Source of the DNA: Eledone cirrhosa
Lineage: Eukaryota
Length of the DNA stretch: 64,000 nucleotides
Reading direction: 5' to 3'
NCBI GenBank assembly: GCA_964016885.1
Contig: OZ024745.1
Coordinates: 102,796,001-102,860,000, forward strand
Shown: piece by piece, positions 2,847 to 37,873 of the stretch
Numbering within the stretch: position 1 is the first letter of the stretch
How the letters are laid out: each line of letters begins with the position of its first letter
Notes under the pieces: model-generated
Databases searched by the model: none
The model's input: the letters and a program-made list of their open reading frames with translations, nothing else
What the model was told of the DNA's origin: nothing
Position numbers and translations under genes: made by a program

Positions 2847-5800
2847 TGAGGGGCGGGGCGATAAAAGGAGCCCTAACCAAATGCTCCTCCCACACAAAGC
2901 CGGCCAGTCTACCGCGGCTGGCGGTTTTACCCTTGCAAGCAGTCGAAACCATCACAATAGAAAGAACTTGATTCTTGGCGCATGGAATGTGCGTACCCTC
3001 ATGGATATGGAAACCACCTTGAGGCCAGAGAGAAGAACTGCCCTCATAGCAAGGGAATTAGCTCGCTACCGGATCGACATAGCCGCCCTCAGCGAGACTA
3101 GACTTGCCGAAGAAGGATCAGTAGCAGAACCGAAATGAGGCTACACCTTCTTCTGGAAGAGCAATGCAAAGGACGAGGACGGAATCCACGGGGTATGCCT
3201 GGCCATCAGGACTTCACTCTGCAAGCAGCTACCAGACCTCCCAACACCTGTGAGCGAGCGGCTGATGATGCTCCGCCTCTCCCGCGACCCATCTCGGCAT
3301 GTCACAGTCATAAGCGCGTACGCCCCCATTCTCACCAGCAGCGATGAAGCAAAGAACGCTTTCTACGAGGAACTCAACGCACTCGTGAAGGGCCCCCCCC
3401 TCCCAAAGCGATAAAATCATCCTACTGGGGGACTTCAACGCAAGAGTCGGGTATGACAGTAGCAACTGGAGAGACGTGCTGGGACCTCACGGTGCAGGGA
3501 AGCTGAACTCTAACGGCCTCATACTGTTGAGTTTATGCGCCGAGAACGACCTCACCATCACCAGCACACTGTTCCGCCAGGCAGACAAGTTCAAGATGAC
3601 ATGGTTGCACCCCAGATCCAAACAGTGGCATCTGATTGACTTTGCCATATGCCGCAGGAGGGACATCCGTGACGTCAGAATCACCAGGGCCATGCGTGGT
3701 GCAGAGCGTCGGACCGACCATCGCCTTGTCAGGACCATCCTGTTACTGCACATCATCCCGACGCATCACAAGACTCCGAAAATCTGTAGGCCAGCTTTCG
3801 ACGTCGCACGACTCAAGCAGCCAGAGCATCGTGATGCGTTCGCGGAAGACGGCCGGCTGAATGCCCATGGACCAGTGACCGGACCCCCAACTCAACAGTG
3901 GGACCAGTTCAGGTCGCTGGTACAGAGTCAGCCAAGGCAACCATTGGGCCGAGGAAGAGAGTCCACCAGGACTGGTTTGATGAAAACGATGAGCGCATCA
4001 GACAACTCCTCCACCTCGAAGCGCGACCGCTTCAAGCACCTCCAGAGGCAGACCCAAGCAGCACTACGCAGAATGCAGGAGAAGTGCTGGGAAAAGAAGG
4101 CCGAAGAAGTCGAGAGATACGCTGACACAAAGAACTCCAAGATGTTCTTCAGCGCCATCGGAGACGTCTACTGAGCCCCCAAGCCTGTCACCATACCACT
4201 GCTGTCTGCTGACGGCTCGATGCTGCTGAAGGAGAAGCGCAGCATCAACTCGAGGTGGAGAGAGCACTTCAGCAACCTGCTCAACAGGCCCTCCACTGTC
4301 GACCCTGCCGCCCTCGATCAGGTCCCACAGAAGCCCGTAGTCGGCAGCCTTGGTGTTTCCGAACGGCTCCGATTCCTCTCCGCCCTAGCGCACCTGGAAT
4401 TGCCGTATCAGGTTCACAAACGTTGGATGAAGTCACGAAGGCAATCAACCAGACCAGCTCAGGAAAGGCCCATTGGAAGGACGGGATTGCTGCCGAGATC
4501 TTCAAGTCGGCCGATCCAGCTGCCCTGGGGGCCTTCCACACACTCCTCGTCAGCATAGGGGAGGAAGAAGAGGTGCCCAAAGACTTCAGAGATGCCACAG
4601 TTGTCTCGCTTTTTAAGAACAAAGGCAGCAAAACTGACTGTGGCAACTATCGGGGCATTTCTCTCCTGTCCATCTCTGGGAAGGTCTGGCTCGAATCATG
4701 CTCAACCGCCTCATTGCCAACATCTTGAAGGAAAACCTGCCTGAAGCCCAGTGTGGGTTCCACCCAAACCGCAGCACGATCGACATGATCTTCTCTGTAC
4801 GCTAGGTGCAGGAGAAGTGTGTCGAGCAGAACATGGACCTCTTTGCCGTCTTCATAGATTTGACGAAGGCATTCGACACTGTCAACAGGGAAGCCCTCTG
4901 GTTGATCCTGTCGAATTTTGGTTGCTCGACAAAGTTTGTGAACCTGATACGGCAATTCCAGGTGCGCTAGGGCGGAGAGGCATCGGAGCCGTTCGGAATC
5001 ACCAACGGCGTCAAGCAAAGATGCGTGCTGGCTCCCGTCCTCTTCAACCTGTTCTTCACCTGCGTGCTCAATCATGCCGTCAGGAACCTCGAGCTCGGAT
5101 ACAGACTGGACGGCTCCCTGTTTGACCTGCGGCGCTTGACGGCCAAGACAAGGACCGTGCAGAGGATCGTCCTGGAAGCACTTTTTGCTGACGACTGTGC
5201 TCTCATGGCCCACAGGGAGTCTGACCTCCAACTCATCGTCAACAAGTTCGTGGAGGCCTCCTCTTCGATCTCACGATTAGCCTTAGCAAGACTGAGGTCC
5301 TGTTCCATCCTGCACCTCCCTCCGTCGCCCACCCTCCTATCTCCATCGGAGGCACCCAGCTAAAGACGGTAGACGACTTCAAGTACCTCGGCAGTGTCAT
5401 CAGCAGCGATGGAAGCCTCGACAAGGATATAAACGCCAGAATCTGCAAGGCCAGTCAAGCCCTCGGCCGCCTGAGGACACGCGTCCTGAACCAGCACAAC
5501 ATCAGGCAGTCCACCAAGCACAAGGTGTACAGGACCGTTGTTCTCACCAGCCTCCTCTGCGGATGTGAGACATGGACCCTGTACAGAAGGCACCTGAAGC
5601 AGCTGGAACGGTTCCACATGCGCAGCCTTCGGTCAATTATGAACATCAAATGGCAGGACAAGGTCTCCAACATCGAAGTTCTTGACATGGCTGAGACAAC
5701 CAGTGTCGAAGCTATGATACTGAAGAGCCAACTTCGATGGGTGGGACATGTCATCCGGATGGACTATCACTGGTTTCCGAAGCAACTGATGTATGGGGAA

Positions 5801-6174
5801 CTCTGTTCGGGGAAACGAAAGCGGGGCAGGCCTCTCAAGAGGTTCAAAGACTGCGTGAAGTCCAGTTTCAACAACACTGGAATTTCACCAAAACAACCCG
5901 AGTCTCATGCTCAGGACAGCACTGAGTGGCGAGCCCTTACCAGACGCGCCAAAGACTCTTTTGAAGAGAAGAGACGGGCAGAGGTCACTGAGGCCCGTGA
6001 AAGGAGGAGAAAGGCATCAACAGCTGCCCCAAGCGACTCCGGTCTCTCCCCCTGCCCCCACTGTCCCCGGACCTGCAAGTCAAGGATCGGCCTCCACAGC
6101 CACCTTCGTGCCCATGGCAGACGGGAACTAAAATAAAGAAGATGTCATCATCGTTTACGATGGACAACCAAGAT

Positions 6175-12194: not shown

Positions 12195-14695
12195 ATGAAT
12201 GAGTTTTTCTTGTCCCAACTTGTCCTTGCACCAACGAGGCATCAGAAGAACATTCTGGATCTAGTGTTTAGTAACCACACTAACACTATACATAATATTA
12301 CAGTGGAAAAAACCCTTCTCTCAGACCATGACATGGTTCTTTGTAACCTGAGATTCCACCAGCCGAAAGCTAATCCCAGGGTCCTCTCTCCAGCCCACCC
12401 ATTTGATAACATGGATCTCCACAATGCCAACTGGGATGCAATTATGAACGAACTATCACATGTCGACTGGTCTTTTACACACGCGCACACTTCCACCAAC
12501 ATAAAAAAATCTTGGCAGACCTTTGTAGACACTGTCACAAATATATGTACAAAACACACCCCACCAAAACCTGTGAATAAAACCAAGTGCAGTATCCTCC
12601 AAAACAGAAAAACAATTATCAGAAAAATAAAAAGAACAAACAAAAAAATTAACACACTAAAATACTGCCAACAGCAACACATACATTCAATGGCTATCAC
12701 CCTGCTTGAGTAAAAAAAATATAACCTCCAGCAATGCATGATGACCATCATCAATAACCAGAGAATAGCTGAAGAGAGGTGGGCCATTGAGAAAATCAAA
12801 CTCAACCCCAAAGTGTTCTTCCCATTCGCTAAAAAACACAAGGTCACCGTCTCCACTGTTGGCCCCCTAGTTGATGAAAATGGCACACTCCAGGCCAATG
12901 CCAAAACCATGGGCGAGATACTGCAGAAACAATACTGCTCTGTTTTCAGCAACCCTGATATGGCCGGTCTGAGCCGTATCCGTGATATTAACCCCCAACA
13001 CACTATATCAGACATAACGTTTGGCGCCCCTGATGTCTTAGCGGCAATAAACGAAATTAAACACAATTCAGCAGTAGGCCCCGGCAGGTTCCCTGCTTGT
13101 GTCCTGAAGGTGTGTCGACACCAACTTGCAACTCCTCTTGCTAATCTGTGGAGGAACTCACTGGACACTGGCTATATTCCTGAAAACTTTCTGTCCCAGT
13201 CCGTTGTCCCAGTCTTCAAAAAGGGAAATAAGTCCCTTGCAATGAACTACCGTCCGATCTCACTCACCTCTCATATTATCAAGGTATTTGAGAGGGTGGT
13301 GAGATCACGAATAACCCACTTTCTTGAAAGCAACGGCCTGCTGAACTCCAACCAACATGAATTCCGTAATGGAAGGGACTGCCTAACGCAGCTCCTGCAT
13401 CACTTTCGCGAGTTTTTGAGAGCCTTGGGAGAGGGCTCCAACACTGATGTCATCTACCTTGATTTCAGCAAGCCCTTCGACAGGGTTGATCATAAGTTTC
13501 TACTGAAAAAACTATCCAATGTTGGTGTCTCTGGAAGGTTACTACAGTGGATCAAATGTTTCCTGACAGGCATAACCCAGCATGTTGTAGTCGAAGGAGT
13601 AAAATCAAGCCCTGCCAAAGTCAGCAGTGGCGTTCCACAAGGCACTGTGTTGGGCCCACTTCTTTTCATCATCTACATTAATGACATTACTGACATCATC
13701 AAACACAGCAACATCAGAATCTTCGCAGATGATTCCAAGCTCCAAAGGGTCATCAATGAGGTGGGTGACCGGACTTGACTTCAGTCAGACCTACTGGCTG
13801 TTATCCAATGGCAGAGATGAATAATATGCTGTTGAATGAGGATAAATTTGAACTAATCCACTTTGGAAAAAAGGATGCCCTGAAACTACCATACTCTCTT
13901 CCTTCGGGTGAAACTCTAGTGGCTTCCAATAACATCAGAGACCTGGGAGTAATTGTGGACAACAATATAAGCTGGGCCACTCATATAAACAGCAAAGTTG
14001 ATATGGTCCGCAGAATGTGTTCCTGGATTCTCAGAACTTTCCAGACGAGAGATATCCACACTGTTGTCCTTCTCTTCTCCACTTTTGCCCGACCCCACCT
14101 TGAAGACTGTTGTCCACTGTGGTCACCCCCACACGAAAAAAAGTATCATGAAAGTTGAAGCACCCCAAAGGTCAATTACAAAAAAGTTAGTTGGCATGAC
14201 AGGCCTTGCTTGCCTATTGGGGTCGATTAGAAAAGCTCAAACTTTATTCTCTTCAACGTTGCCGTGAGCGCTTCATTATCTGTATGATGTGGAAAATATT
14301 CCATCAGCTTAGCCCAAATGATGTTGGCATCACCTTTAGTGTACACCCAAGACTTGGACCATGTGCTATCCGCCCACGACAAAAATCCCACTCGCATCAC
14401 ATAACAACAATACGGCACAATTATTTCACCTCAATTGGCCCTGCACTCTTTCACATTAGACCAAAACACATCAAAGCAGAGACAGACCCCATCAAGTTCA
14501 AGAAGTCTTTGGATAAATTCCTTCAAGAAATCCCGGATAAGCCTCCTACACCCGAATATGCCTCCGTAAACAATAACTCTCTGCTCGAGTGGGCCATGGT
14601 GTCCAAACACTTATTTGTAAGACTTCGCCAGGTGGTGGTGGTGCTATTAAGTTAGACATGGCCTGGGCTAATACTGGCCGAAACCTATCAAAGTT
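12195..14695 (+). mobile_element. 5'-truncated CR1-group LINE ORF2 (endonuclease C-terminus and RT), disrupted
   Basis: PTR..NILDLVFSN, SDHDMV, NYRPISLTS, YLDFSKPFDRVDH, GVPQGTVLGPLLFIIYIND, IFADD, RDLGVIVD, across ORFs 12171-14655. Confidence 0.92.
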
Positions 14696-30339: not shown

Positions 30340-32320
30340 CACTATGTAACATATTTTTTGTTCCCCGGTTCTAAGTGTTATTTCATGGTTTGTTATATCC
30401 CATTATTATAAAAAAAACACTATTATTTAATCAGAAGTTTGGGTTTGTGGTCAGGAGTTTGATATTTCGAAATTTTCATATTTTTCAAGAAAAAACACTT
30501 TTTTTTAAAAATTTATCAGTTCATATAATTAAATCAACAGAGTATATATTTATTTTATTACACAAGCTTATCAAAAGCAAACAAGTAAAAACAAATAACA
30601 CTTATAAAGCAACTTATACACGTCAGAAATGACTAGATTTCCTGGATTTGCGGTTGTAATCCAGGTCGCATTCCCGCACTAGCCCCCAGATATAGTCCCC
30701 CATCATTTTTTCATTGTAGTGGTCCTTATACCTCCGCTCTATCTCTTTCACATCTTGGTGGAATCGTTCGCCTTGTTCTTCTGAGTAGGTGCCCATATTG
30801 TCCTTGAATTTTTCCAGGTGAGCGTCCAGCATATGGAGTTTAAGCGACATCCTGCATCCCATGGCGCCAAAAGCCTTTATCATATCCTGCACCAGTTGCT
30901 GGTAGTTTTCAGCTCTATAGTTGCCCAGGAAGCCCTTAACAACTGCCTTGAAACAGTTCCATGCTGTTCTCTCAATCCTATTGAGCTTATTGGAGAACTC
31001 AGTAGACTCAAACACCTTCTTTATCTGAGGTCCAACAAAAATTCCACCTTTGATTTTGGCCTTAGATAACTTGGGAAAGAACTCAAAAAGGTACTTAAAA
31101 GCGCTGATTCTTGGTTGAGAGCCTTCACAAACTGCTTCATCAACGCCAACTTAATGTGCAGTGGCGGCATGAGCACAATCCTGGGATCAACCAGTGGCTC
31201 CCACATGACGTTCCGGGTCCCAACTACAAATTCTGTTCACTGCTCCCAGTTCTTTCTTTTGCAGTGGTCAGAGGTGGCTCTGCTGTCCCAAAGGCAGAGG
31301 AAGCATTGGAATTTGATAAAGTCTTGGAGTCCAAGCAGGAAAGCCACCATCTTGAAGTCTCCAATGATTTCCCAATTGTACTGGTTGCATTGCAGAGCTT
31401 CCAAGAGGACTTTCACACTGTAGTAATCTTCCTTCAGGCAGACTGAATGAGCTAGGGGCAGTGTCGGGAACTTGTTTCCATTGTGGAGGAGGACAGCCTT
31501 CAAACATGTGGTGGAGCTGTCTATAAATAGCCACCACTCCTTGGGCACAAACGGCACCCCAATAACATCAAACAGTCCAGGCATGTCATGGTAGAAGCAG
31601 AGGCCATCTCTAAGGGTGTTAAAGCCTGAGAAAGGTTTGTGTCGACTTCTCTGACTTATCACCTGCACTTCCTCCTTGACCAAGTTCCACTGCTTCATCC
31701 TGGAGACGAATAGCTCTGCATTGGACTTGGTCAGACCCATATCCCTGACCAAGTCATTGACTTCTTTTTGGTTTGGGAAGTGAGGAACTTTTTCTGGTAC
31801 CTCAGGCAGGTAATCCAAGTCCTCAGCATCCATCTCCTCCTCTTCATCAGAATACTTGTCTTGGAAAATAAATTTAATATGCAATACAAAATAAATATTG
31901 GAAAGGGAAATACATATTTAAATAATATAAAAGAACACTAATAATACTAATGAAAATTCGTGCTTAAAACACAACTCACCCTTTATTCAGGGTGCGAAAA
32001 TCCAGTATCAATAAATCTCTTTAATCCACTTTTTAACAATTTTATACTTTATTGCACTTTTATAATTTTCTTTAGGTATTACTCTTTATTTTATAATTTT
32101 AATTTAACCTGAAACATATATAAAAAAATCATTTAACATAAGCAAATTAAACTTACATACAACGTAAAATCCCACATAATTCTAGTGAATAGCTTAGAAT
32201 TTTTACAAACCCAAACTTTTAACTGTTTAATAGCACTTTTTTATTTATTGGGACCTAAACAACACAAAAAAAGTGATTACAAGCCAGGAACAGAGAAAAA
32301 AAAATTTTTGTTACACAGTG
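30340..32320 (-). mobile_element. Chapaev3-type (CMC superfamily) DNA transposon, internally deleted and frameshifted
   Basis: TIRs CACTATGTAACA (30340) and TGTTACACAGTG (32320), TAA on both sides. Transposase motifs FIDSS..CLKAVLLHNGN, IIGDFKMV, PPLHIKLALMKQFVKAL, SLKLHML.AHL and EQGERFHQD. Confidence 0.85.
30623..31860 (-). pseudogene. Chapaev3 transposase pseudogene (three frame pieces; upstream GT-AG intron ~31860-31979)
   Basis: ORFs 31237-31884, 31021-31206 and 30623-31015 join into one transposase. Donor GGTGAGT near 31979 and acceptor ttttccaag near 31860. Confidence 0.8.
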
Positions 32321-33448: not shown

Positions 33449-33489
<41 letters not shown>

Positions 33490-33574
33490 ATATGTATATA
33501 AATATATATATATACATAAATATATACATAAATATATACATAGATGAATATATATATATATAAATAAACATATG

Positions 33575-33613
<39 letters not shown>

Positions 33614-33676: not shown

Positions 33677-33793
33677 AACGGGTTACCATGCGAAATAAAT
33701 ACTTATTCGGGGGCTAAAAAAAGTGCATGGGCACCAACGGAAAAAGGGGCATCCGGTTTGCCGCCTTTGACAGTGCATTTGCTATTAACCAAA

Positions 33794-33832
<39 letters not shown>

Positions 33833-33847
33833 ATGCAGATATATAGT

Positions 33848-33853
33848 TTTATT
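33848..33853 (-). terminator. AATAAA polyadenylation signal of the viral transcription unit
   Basis: tttatt on the + strand, ~80 nt after the NS1 stop. Confidence 0.55.
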
Positions 33854-33935: not shown

Positions 33936-35054
33936 TTAAAGTTCTTGAGTGAATGGTTCTGGAGAAGGAGCGTCTTTGTTCGACTGCATCATTTTTTTGA
34001 ATCTGCTCGTTCCTTGAATGGTACTGACGTGCGTAAACATGTTAGATATACTACGCGCGATCATTGATTTGCCTGTGTTAGGCAGGCCGGTGAATACAAG
34101 CAAGTTTGTTTTGGCTTTGTATTTATTAAGCAAATCCCAAATACATTTTACAAGTTCTTCTTCGTCTATGTCTTGTGTCATAATTATTGATCTAAATATT
34201 TTCAACGAAGTTTCGGTATCCATCCATAATTTGGTGTTTTCAAATTGTTTCCAATTCATATTCTCGAACTTCTCTTTGAATGGCATTATCAGTGTTTTCA
34301 GTTTCACGCATTCGAGTACTTTCTTCATGACGCTGTCGTACATGGGATGACTGATAGCGCGCATGAAATTTTCGTTGTTTGCTCGGTTAAGCCAGTGTGT
34401 TTTCATCTCCTGTTCGTTTCGAAATTTTTTTGATGTGAATATATACGTCAGGTAGTTGAATAGAGTTAAAGTCGTACCACTTCTGCTTTTGAATGTCGGT
34501 TCGTCCGTGGCATGTCTTGTTGATGTACTCGTTTTAGGTGTTGGGCTACATTTAGGTACGTATTCTTTCGAGCACCATTCTGCAAATTCAGAGTTTATAG
34601 AACCGAGGCCTTTTATCAGTAAATATCTCGGTGGTTGGCAGAAGTAATTGGCCATGCTGCTAGGGAACTTTACTCTTTGACACTCTGGTATGTATCGCGC
34701 TAACTGTGTTCCCTTTTTGTACAAGCTTCTCACGTATTTGAGACGTTGGTTTTCTCCTGGTCTTATCTCTGAATTCCATATGATATGGAAGTGGTTGAAC
34801 GCATTCCATTCCTTTTTGTCGCATATTTTTGATTCTTTTGGATGGTAAATTACTGTTGCCTTGTTGATTTGAATAAATTCTATTATTTTTCTGTTTGCAT
34901 TAATTAGAAAGTTATTCTTGTATGCCCCTTCTTTTTCGTCGAAATCGTTTGTTGTTATTTCGTCGTGTTGTATCGGAACTCTACCGTTGTCCCAACTGAA
35001 GTCCGTTTCAAGTATCCAAGGATAAATGCACATGTACATTTTTATTCCTCTTTT
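33936..35054 (-). CDS. NS1: Parvoviral NS1/Rep exon 2 (HUH endonuclease and truncated SF3 helicase)
   Basis: HUH motif NHFHII (34785-34793), Tyr motif ANYF, Walker A LLVFTGLPNTGKS (34065-34088). Walker B and motif C absent. Preceded by acceptor ccattttatatttgcAG. Confidence 0.85.
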   Translation of the reverse strand, partial: KRGIKMYMCIYPWILETDFSWDNGRVPIQHDEITTNDFDEKEGAYKNNFLINANRKIIEFIQINKATVIYHPKESKICDKKEWNAFNHFHIIWNSEIRPGENQRLKYVRSLYKKGTQLARYIPECQRVKFPSSMANYFCQPPRYLLIKGLGSINSEFAEWCSKEYVPKCSPTPKTSTSTRHATDEPTFKSRSGTTLTLFNYLTYIFTSKKFRNEQEMKTHWLNRANNENFMRAISHPMYDSVMKKVLECVKLKTLIMPFKEKFENMNWKQFENTKLWMDTETSLKIFRSIIMTQDIDEEELVKCIWDLLNKYKAKTNLLVFTGLPNTGKSMIARSISNMFTHVSTIQGTSRFKKMMQSNKDAPSPEPFTQEL

Positions 35055-35093
35055 CTGCAAATATAAAATGGATAGATTTGTTGTAATATTACT

Positions 35094-36662
35094 TTAACGA
35101 TGAGCTTGTCGGGTTTTACCGACTCTCGTTATTTCATAATTACGTAAACCTTGCGGCCATTTACATAGATTTGTTTTGGCTGAATTTTGTATTGTTGCAT
35201 TGTCTTTTCCCCATGCCATCCAACCCATGGTTTGTGGACTGCCAGAAATATATTCGAAATCTATTTCAGAATGATAAGTTATTGTGATCATGAATGATAT
35301 TTTAGCCGGATTGTTTTGAGAATCTAGAATAGGTACAGAATCTAAAGTAGCTATTGGCGGTGGATTAGATGGATTTATTGGAAACTGTGTTAAATGTGAT
35401 CTGCCAGTGTTTTGTTCTTCATTTGATTTATCTACCGCCATTGATTTACTCCATGCCCCTTTTTCCGTTGGTGCCCATGCACTTTTTTTAGCCCCCGAAT
35501 AAGTATTTATTTCGCATGGTAATCCGTTAGTTAGTTTTATTGTTGGTGGTTCGTATGTAGAATTAAATGCATAATAGTTCATCATATTGAACCAACTTGG
35601 AGTTCTATTTACCCATGTATATCCTGCTGTGTCCCCAGCGTAAACGAATTGAAATTGACCAGTGTTTAAATAAGACAATATTTCTTCTGCTGGTATTTCT
35701 TGTTCTGTAGGTTTCGCTGCCTTAGTATCTTGCCATAACCACCAATCTTTTCTAATTAATCTATTTGTAATGCATTGATTTAGTTTCCCTTCTTCCCTTG
35801 TTAATGGTACGTTATGTGTCCAATTATTGTTTAAATGTCCTATTAAGTATGTTTGATTAGGAAATAAACAGTATTTATTATCGACGTAATGTATCATCCA
35901 TGGTCTTGTATTGAATGTTGTGTTAGTTGTAGTTGTATTTTGTAATGTTCCTAATTCGTCTGTTAAAGGAATTATATTTGATATTTGATACCCACATGAT
36001 TTAACTCTGAAATTATTGCAAGGTGTTAAATATGTTTCTAATTCTGCTATTGTCATACTAGCTTTTAATTCTGTATATGGTATGTATGATGCTCTGTGTT
36101 TTATTGTTAATTCTATGTATTCATCATCATGTGTTTTGTATATTGCTTTATCTGTAGGATTATCCGAACAGTTTATGTAGTGTATGAAAGTTCTTGAAAA
36201 TTTTTTTGAAACGATTGGATTTTTATCGCCTATGTCTGGTGGTTGATCTCCACTTGCCATTGCTGCTGAGCCCCCAGGAGCTGGACCTACATGTGGATCA
36301 CCCATGTCTACTGTTTGACTATTAATTCCGCTGTCTTGTGATACAAAGTCTTCGTCTGATGCGTCGCAAAGGTCTTCTTGATTTTTCTTAGATTGTTCTT
36401 CTTCTACTCTTCTTTTTTTGTTCGCCGGTGGCATAACCCAATTCTTAGCTTTGATTGTGTTTGCTACTACGAACGCCGCTACTCCGCCTATATTTTCAGA
36501 ACACTGTATTAATCTATTATCTGCTTCTGCTATATCTACCTCTGTTTTACCGTATTCTATGTCGTGTATTTGACAGCATTTATCTAATTCGTTAACAGGT
36601 TGTTTTTGTAAATTGTTTGTGTATGGACCACAATAATTATAACCTGGTAAATGTAAAGGCAT
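35094..36662 (-). CDS. VP1: Parvoviral capsid protein VP1 (522 aa) with N-terminal PLA2 domain
   Basis: LPGYNYCGPY...VNELDKCCQIHDIEY...D (Ca loop and HD catalytic motif), NLS-like PANKKRR, Gly/Ala-rich PGGSAAMASG, Y-I-P motif typical of the start of the jelly roll. ORF uninterrupted. Confidence 0.9.
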   Translation of the reverse strand: MPLHLPGYNYCGPYTNNLQKQPVNELDKCCQIHDIEYGKTEVDIAEADNRLIQCSENIGGVAAFVVANTIKAKNWVMPPANKKRRVEEEQSKKNQEDLCDASDEDFVSQDSGINSQTVDMGDPHVGPAPGGSAAMASGDQPPDIGDKNPIVSKKFSRTFIHYINCSDNPTDKAIYKTHDDEYIELTIKHRASYIPYTELKASMTIAELETYLTPCNNFRVKSCGYQISNIIPLTDELGTLQNTTTTNTTFNTRPWMIHYVDNKYCLFPNQTYLIGHLNNNWTHNVPLTREEGKLNQCITNRLIRKDWWLWQDTKAAKPTEQEIPAEEILSYLNTGQFQFVYAGDTAGYTWVNRTPSWFNMMNYYAFNSTYEPPTIKLTNGLPCEINTYSGAKKSAWAPTEKGAWSKSMAVDKSNEEQNTGRSHLTQFPINPSNPPPIATLDSVPILDSQNNPAKISFMITITYHSEIDFEYISGSPQTMGWMAWGKDNATIQNSAKTNLCKWPQGLRNYEITRVGKTRQAHR

Positions 36663-36672
36663 TCTGACTTAC

Positions 36673-36726
36673 CGCCAAAGAAGTAATCATATCTCGATCT
36701 CTCGTCTTTAAATCTTCGTAATTCAT
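36673..36726 (-). CDS. NS1: Predicted NS1 exon 1 (MNYEDLKTRDRDMITSLA)
   Basis: CAAC-ATG context and 18 codons ending GCG|GTAAGT (phase 0), in frame with exon 2 after CAG at 35055. Confidence 0.7.
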
Positions 36727-36808: not shown

Positions 36809-36924
36809 TTTTATATCTCGATTCTTGCTGACGTTAGCATATTGAATTACTGTCACGTGGTTCTATTTATACTTTTGCTAACGCAAGCATTATTTTTTGC
36901 TGATGTAGCTTTAATATTGCGTCA
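36809..36924 (-). promoter_or_regulatory. Viral left-end promoter
   Basis: TATAAATA (36864-36871), TATAAAA (36809-36815), E-box CACGTG (36854-36859), CRE half-sites TGACG (36829-36833 and 36920-36924). Confidence 0.6.
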
Positions 36925-37228
36925 TTTCTTAACTGTCAAATCTTGCTTTGTAATTTGATATCTTTGCCTGTCCCCTCTCCTAACTGTGCTATGCACTGAA
37001 CTTTTGGATAGGAGACCTGACCGGGAGGGAGGGAGGTTGAGGTTCATTACAAAGTTATAGCGTAAAGGATCTTCACGATTACCTATCCGCTAAATTCTTT
37101 AGATTCCTCAACCTCCCTCCCTCCCGGTCAGGTCTCCTATCCAAAAGTTCAGTGCATAGCACAGTTAGGAGAGGGGACAGGCAAAGATATCAAATTACAA
37201 AGCAAGATTTGACAGTTAAGAAATGACG
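36920..37228. repeat. Parvoviral terminal hairpin (telomere and replication origin)
   Basis: Arms 36920-37042 and 37106-37228 are exact 123-bp reverse complements. The 63-nt centre pairs imperfectly (aaag/cttt, tagcg/cgcta, agg/cct, atc/gat). Confidence 0.92.
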
Positions 37229-37635
37229 GGAGAGATGACCCCTTAGCCTTTGTCAAGGCAGAATTCTAGGAGAAGGAAAACTCTGATATAACACCTGCAA
37301 CCCTGATGGTATCCAATGATGTTGACTTGTTCTTCTTTTTGGTAAATATCATCTTGGTTAAGAGAGTGGGACTGGCTTTGTGCAGTGCCTTTGCTCACTA
37401 TAAAAGCTTCACGGCACAGGCATTGCTTTATATCTGGAGATCTCTCTGCACTTGTCGTCACATGGTACCATGGGCCCAGCACTCTGTGTCAATAATTGTC
37501 ACAAGTGTAGTGTTTGTACCAGAGTTTTCAAGTCGCTGGCTGGACTAAAAAGTCAGTCGTTCAGCGCATCGGTAGGGGTTCTCCTACATGGATATAAAGT
37601 AGTGGCCGTACTCGAAAACGAGTTGGCAGCCACCA
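37227..37635 (+). mobile_element. Family C RTE-derived retroposon, 5'-truncated and fused to the viral hairpin end
   Basis: Matches the 3' ~410 bp of the copies at 18947-19518 and 19627-20235. Remnant CSVCTRVFKSLAGLKS; followed by (TA)n. Confidence 0.85.
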
Positions 37636-37873
37636 TATATATATATATATATATATAAACATATGTATATAAATATATATATATACATAAATATATACAT
37701 AAATATATACATAAATATATACATAGATGAATATATATATATATAAATAAACATATGTATATAAATATATATAGGAACGAGTAGGACCCCGACGGCTGAG
37801 CTCAAGCTGTTTTGGCGGCTAATTCTGGACTACTTATGGTCTACCTGGTTCCTTACCACATTTCCTTCGTTAT

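Follow-up and report, generated by a model that had tools for sequence, protein, structure and literature searches.

Parvoviruses have been described as carrying the NS gene in the genome's left half and the capsid gene in the right half, for all members in the excerpt of one account (PMC11357303) and "often" in the excerpt of another, which also describes genera that rely on splicing from a single promoter (PMC12298888). The genera Bocaparvovirus and Amdoparvovirus are heterotelomeric and monosense with one left promoter, and they resemble the element described here in having different end hairpins, genes on one strand, alternative splicing, a PLA2 domain at the capsid N-terminus and an NS1 with HUH and SF3 domains (excerpts of PMC12298888 and PMC13426907). 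They differ in that NS lies left and capsid right, as given in the excerpted sources (PMC12298888; PMC11357303), whereas here the capsid comes first and appears to lie inside an NS intron. The best solved-structure match of our capsid body was that of Penaeus monodon metallodensovirus (PmMDV; Metalloincertoparvovirus), with E-values of 5e-8 (single sequence) and 2.5e-9 (profile) over a short stretch of ~56 residues. PmMDV has NS first and is not known to carry a PLA2. The excerpted description of its ends gives a 161-nt terminal hairpin, a likeness to our locus, and 416-nt inverted terminal repeats with a T-shaped hairpin (PMC11357303), a difference, since the two ends here are unlike outside a 19-nt block; the 416-nt repeats and T-shaped hairpin that mark Metalloincertoparvovirus and Metallovirinae were not found here. 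The Swazi bat megaparvovirus group and its beetle EVEs have a PLA2-bearing ORF upstream of NS1, as here, and complete invertebrate EVEs are known, but the capsid ORF of the megaparvoviruses follows NS1 and lacks PLA2, and their genomes are ~6.4 kb and likely homotelomeric (excerpt of PMC13426907). For octopuses, Francois et al. 2016 listed a parvovirus-related NS fragment of 246 aa from Octopus bimaculoides in their supplement (PMC5013282). A 246-aa O. bimaculoides protein was 72% identical to the NS studied here, its length and the start of its accession match that entry as excerpted, and the 2016 fragment probably belongs to the same family; the excerpted entry is a fragment only and gives no termini, gene order or splicing (PMC5013282). 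We found no paper on a capsid-in-NS-intron layout or on octopus parvoviral EVEs in the searched literature, which excluded subscription journals and ICTV proposals, and the excerpts of PMC10267136, PMC9707805 and PMC12297876 hold nothing on a capsid-first layout.

We analyzed a 64,000-nt stretch of the Eledone cirrhosa assembly (the window), in which an earlier note had pointed to a parvoviral terminal hairpin. That identification was borne out by the adjoining genes. An uninterrupted capsid ORF of 522 aa (35094..36662, minus strand) carries an N-terminal PLA2 domain (PF08398; E 2e-13 by profile search), and its sequence and feature matches were to parvoviral capsids, while single-sequence fold prediction reached a pLDDT of only 31. 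After it on the same strand comes an NS ORF of 367 aa that matched Parvo_NS1 (PF01057; E 3e-6, and 7e-16 for an undeleted natural NS copy) and, in the PDB, NS1 and AAV Rep. The part that we take as NS exon 2 (33936..35054, minus strand) contains a HUH-like motif and Walker A; an HFH motif common to relatives was seen by eye and is covered by no profile match. The SF3 helicase typical of Parvoviridae NS1 is present by the PF01057 match, which was above the cut-off, but the window copy lacks the part after Walker A, which an in-frame 546-nt deletion at 34002/34003 has removed relative to the other natural copies. In run X1, two short-read contigs stop exactly at the deletion point, one on each side, which is what a mixture of deleted and undeleted forms would give. 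Further downstream we found an AATAAA (33848..33853, minus strand), a T run (33799-33827), a 46-nt remnant of a right-end arm cut at the start of its GGGA block (33753..33798, minus strand) and, at the left junction, a 76-nt inverted capsid fragment (33677..33752, plus strand) that carries the allele of sister copies and not that of the window, with a TA-rich array beyond it. On the hairpin side, motif matches on the minus strand gave a TATA-like box (36865..36871) and an E-box (36854-36859) as a candidate left promoter, and a second TATA-like box (36809-36815). Elsewhere in the window, frames of decayed LINE-type endonucleases and reverse transcriptases, and a fragment resembling a transposase, were seen by eye (2950-6140, 12195-13780 and 31237-31833), and there is an N gap near 25.5-25.7 kb.

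Arm comparison and ssDNA folding placed the palindrome (36920..37228, no strand assigned) at the left end of the element. As the note had described, its arms are perfect over 123/123 bp (36920-37042 and 37106-37228), with unpaired flanking bases, and the 63-nt centre (37043..37105, no strand assigned) folds as a weak, bulged stem. The 309 nt folded as ssDNA with -164.6 kcal/mol (z = -35.8), and 0 of 100 shuffles did equally well. The imperfect centre is strongly conserved in sequence and is present in the window as the "flip" isomer. The note had expected flip/flop isomers from the mismatched centre, and both occur among the integrated copies: of 18 left ends read from the gene side, 8 were flip, 8 flop (one of them divergent and one a symmetric bridge at C10) and 2 undetermined. 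Flip and flop centres are a signature of terminal resolution in rolling-hairpin replication. We did not count arm covariation towards selection, because during hairpin transfer one arm is the template of the other; no compensatory pair was seen in the centre among the 4 copies compared.

The GGGA repeats noted beside the centre form a 19-nt block (37020..37038, plus strand) that is mirrored at 37110-37128. C998 and C2 show the right end to be another hairpin, which carries the same 19-nt block and has a TGCAC motif nearby. Palindromic hairpins at both ends and flip/flop isomers are found here, as in Parvoviridae. Organism B carries a variant of the right-end hairpin. At the left end the TGCAC motif lies in a small stem-loop (36984..36998, plus strand) near the repeat block, a candidate nick region. 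The recurrence of block and motif in the otherwise different right-end hairpin supports the suggestion that the GGGA repeats are candidate NS1-binding iterons. Right ends were more variable than left ends. An older copy (L072 2520-2660 and 6000-8060; G000:C2) has at least 6 right-end hairpins in re-folded arrays; one of these 6 lies upstream of the capsid, with a GACA/GACG microsatellite between it and half a left hairpin. The right-end hairpins of other older copies (L070 3330-3600, L077 2620-2900, L027 2930-3200 and L022 3930-4220) do not resemble the young type: they are short and perfect, with a GAGG-type tip between runs of A and T.

The note had also called the hairpin complete, and here the evidence leans the other way. 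Older copies match only 36984-37164 by their BLAST limits, and mean identity to 11 of them falls from 0.73 at 36984-37012 to 0.27-0.33 at 36880-36983, a step to which alignment gaps contribute. These limits and the identity step define a conserved 181-nt core with 59-bp arms (36984..37164, no strand assigned) as the likely natural terminal hairpin. The remaining outer 64 bp of the host-side arm (37165..37228, plus strand) would be interior sequence copied in a head-to-head dimer, and they meet a host repeat at a 2-nt microhomology (4 other repeat copies compared). Host-side arms of the young copies measure 123, 43, 9, 1 and 0 bp. In the older copy C4 the outer arm stops at the TGCAC motif, and at C2 the re-folded right ends turn round at it. 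At C10 we found a capsid-hairpin-capsid palindrome with arms of ~1.56 kb, and at C998 a tail-to-tail palindrome of 1.4 kb. A further candidate head-to-head bridge, L071, was rejected and is a tandem partial duplication. Because older copies keep 181 nt, the arm ends in microhomology and a sister copy has ~1.5-kb arms, we favor the view that the 309 nt are a ~180-nt hairpin extended by 64 bp of interior sequence that came from a head-to-head dimer and was cut at the microhomology, and hold it to be likely. That the 309 nt are instead a complete natural left terminus, integrated intact in extended form, seems to us unlikely but deserving of weight. The 123 bp are the longest host-side arm among the young copies, trimming alone could explain the older ones, and long parvoviral hairpins exist in B19 and goose parvovirus. 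Against this, both the conservation and the older outer arms end at ~59 bp, the arm stops in microhomology inside a host repeat, and dimers with far longer arms have integrated at C10. Trimmed hairpins, microhomology junctions, small duplications and head-to-head and tail-to-tail arrays are also known from AAV and densovirus integrants; unlike those, the copies described here lie in a germ-line assembly and keep both hairpin isomers.

The host repeat that the viral arm cuts internally (37229..37634, plus strand) is young and of high copy number, with at least 40 copies at 98-100% identity (40 of 434 candidates scored). It was very deep in runs X1 and X4 and often lay beside TA runs. A TA-rich minisatellite flanks virus and host repeat together (33450-33590 and 37635-37773; 93% identity over 141 nt, 83 nt exact), and may predate the virus. 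C998 also lies between two copies of a single array (88% over 750 nt).

The genome gave 59 matches to NS and 78 to the capsid, and natural copies span ~4 kb from end to end. The young copies comprise seven segments at four loci, the window and C10, C14 and C998, that are 99.8-100% identical. Compared with the window, the C10 and C14 segments differ at 1-3 sites and C998 at 6 of 3,044, counts that include the deletion-edge site where it is covered. Recent integration, as proposed in the note, is supported by a single difference in 2,672 nt between the window and sister copies, which limits divergence to at most 0.2%. The perfect arms by themselves are no proof of recency, contrary to what had been argued, since 0 differences in 123 bp permit up to 2.4% divergence. 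At an assumed substitution rate of ~3e-9 per site per year the integration is younger than ~350,000 years and could be one generation old. Over NS, where the greater part of it could be aligned, older copies were 52-72% identical. Their capsids gave dN of 0.14-0.25 and dS of 1.2-1.9 (4 pairs), and NS dS was saturated (7 pairs). Since they diverged under purifying selection, the older copies split as viruses and entered separately. An NS tree of 22 rows showed several lineages with 3 of 16 inner branches starred; 7 sequences were left out for short cover, it held neither an outgroup from named genera nor PmMDV NS1, and family placement is beyond its resolution. The named relatives of the capsid and NS proteins come from Octopus vulgaris and O. 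bimaculoides. Between two copies of the family at G000:C12 (~9.078 Mb) lies a distant NS-like sequence (L069 7983-9887 and L070 4-852; 22-33% identical, with an open frame of 547 aa), which may represent a second lineage of parvoviruses.

The near-identity of the seven segments at four loci would also be expected if the young copies arose within the host, NS from an integrated copy re-replicating and re-inserting the element like a transposon with no outside infection. Spliced NS RNA reaching past the deletion point of the window is present in run X4, and concatemers occur. We nevertheless consider this origin doubtful: the copies have neither a target-site duplication of fixed length nor fixed ends, older copies show purifying selection on the capsid too, and infection of a single germ cell explains the near-identity equally well.

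We scanned 20 places besides the window, and 15 held both genes. The capsid preceded NS on the same strand in 14 of these, the remaining one (C841) having a mixed order, and in organism B a contig of 3,670 nt shows this capsid-then-NS layout too, at ~90% identity. An 18-codon ORF that ends in GTAAGT lies directly before the capsid start, and a pyrimidine-rich CAG acceptor lies directly before NS. Of 11 copies, 9 have an intact donor and 2 differ at its first base; in 11/11 the acceptor precedes the aligned NS codon by exactly 15 nt, and the reading frame of the leader is conserved. In run X4 a contig of depth 18.1 joins 35054 to 36673 and skips 1,618 nt with GT..AG ends on the minus strand (CT..AC on the plus strand), whereas depth at this joint was 0 in run X1 of the same study. 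The joint comes from one contig of one run, and its short side of 29 letters is below the 31-letter threshold. Run X4, whose run type is not on record, was taken as RNA from this joint and an A>G skew only. Conservation and the joint together define NS exon 1 as the 18-codon leader with its donor (36673..36726, minus strand) and a likely GT-AG intron of 1,618 nt that holds the whole capsid ORF (35055..36672, minus strand); leader and NS join in phase 0, in frame. A second joint in X1 and X4 (34859-35013) was rejected as a splice on account of its CT..AG ends and its occurrence in both runs. A Met lies two codons after the aligned NS start in 11/11 copies, so NS could also start without the leader. 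In unspliced RNA the leader runs over the capsid start in a different reading frame, so the route to the capsid is only inferred.

The canonical Parvoviridae layout of an NS cassette on the left and a separate capsid cassette on the right was not found, the capsid lying between NS exons 1 and 2. This order might be a by-product of integration, for instance if an ordinary NS-capsid genome was circularly permuted or joined into a concatemer, given that the integrants are heavily rearranged and C841 is mixed. But the same short, hairpin-free capsid-NS spacer recurs in organism B and in copies with just 52-72% NS identity, the hairpins before the capsid and after NS differ, and splice signals bracket the capsid; we regard the by-product reading as very improbable and already largely refuted. 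Weakest of all is the reading of the palindrome as a MITE of the host or an artefact of fold-back reads, which we judge scarcely credible: although assembly artefacts can give long palindromes and 2 of the at least 14 genomic hairpin matches (a lower bound) are solo ends with no viral gene within ~5-8 kb, the other 12 adjoin viral genes, ends are ragged where a MITE should have fixed ones, with target-site duplications and numerous copies that lack genes, the asymmetric centre is kept in two isomers in diverged copies and organism B, and X1 short-read contigs carry the inner arm and centre without differences, while none of the contigs listed bridges the 37228/37229 junction.

We found no free or exogenous relatives in viral_contigs or metagenome_contigs. 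The depth of X1 contigs over the element was mostly 10-35, with one bin at 84, and contig depth gives no copy number. In RAD runs from three other individuals under the same species label, 50 reads were placed, 14 of them at >=99%, and 48 of the 50 lay on the stretch just in part; this hints weakly that other individuals share the young family. Four X22 reads that join NS to a virus-free host site in G000 were not counted as an insertion polymorphism, since with AATT on both sides a library ligation chimera is as likely. Of the 64 changes listed for X4, 63 were A>G when read on the capsid-antisense strand; they group on individual contigs over 35782-36671 (40 rows listed). This pattern is consistent with fold-back RNA, transcribed from the inverted C10 and C14 arrays, having been hyper-edited by ADAR. 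T>C changes were near absent in X4, with 12 at a looser setting on the stretch including the host flank; the near absence may be a mapping limit, the sense strand being 42% A. The private capsid allele of the window at 35523 is also that of the X4 contig, while the X4 NS contig is undeleted and X4 leaves the 3' end uncovered; no single assembled copy fits X4 in capsid allele, undeleted NS and uncovered 3' end.

In our assessment the palindrome is quite probably the left hairpin of an integrated parvovirus, likely a piece of a broken head-to-head dimer, from a lineage that carries its capsid in a likely NS intron; the natural left hairpin is probably ~180 nt. We propose that a promoter beside the hairpin would drive one pre-mRNA. 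Splicing would join the 18-codon leader to the NS exon and remove the capsid ORF, and the capsid would be translated from intron-retaining RNA, probably through leaky scanning beyond the leader, with other splices possible. NS1 would bind the GGGA block at both ends, nick near the TGCAC stem-loop and invert the centre in rolling-hairpin replication. End joining may have inserted the resulting monomers, snap-backs and dimer bridges at breaks in host DNA, frequently within TA-rich arrays, a process that would have gone on for a long period and recurred recently. Going further, we tentatively raise the possibility, for which we would claim somewhat less than even confidence, that these are octopus parvoviruses of an undescribed genus or subfamily in which the gene plan of the family has been inverted and the capsid nested in an NS1 intron, a single choice of splicing deciding between replication and capsid, and that they still infect octopuses and are entering the germ line now, leaving in chromosomes raw rolling-hairpin intermediates whose fold-back transcripts are hyper-edited by ADAR.

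A capsid nested in an NS intron, if true, would need a different early-to-late switch. The integrants keep both termini, both isomers and dimer bridges, features rarely shown for endogenous parvoviruses, and one genome holds a time series of them, from near-identical copies to ~50% NS identity. They point to a cephalopod DNA virus that is probably living, and offer direct PCR targets for finding it.
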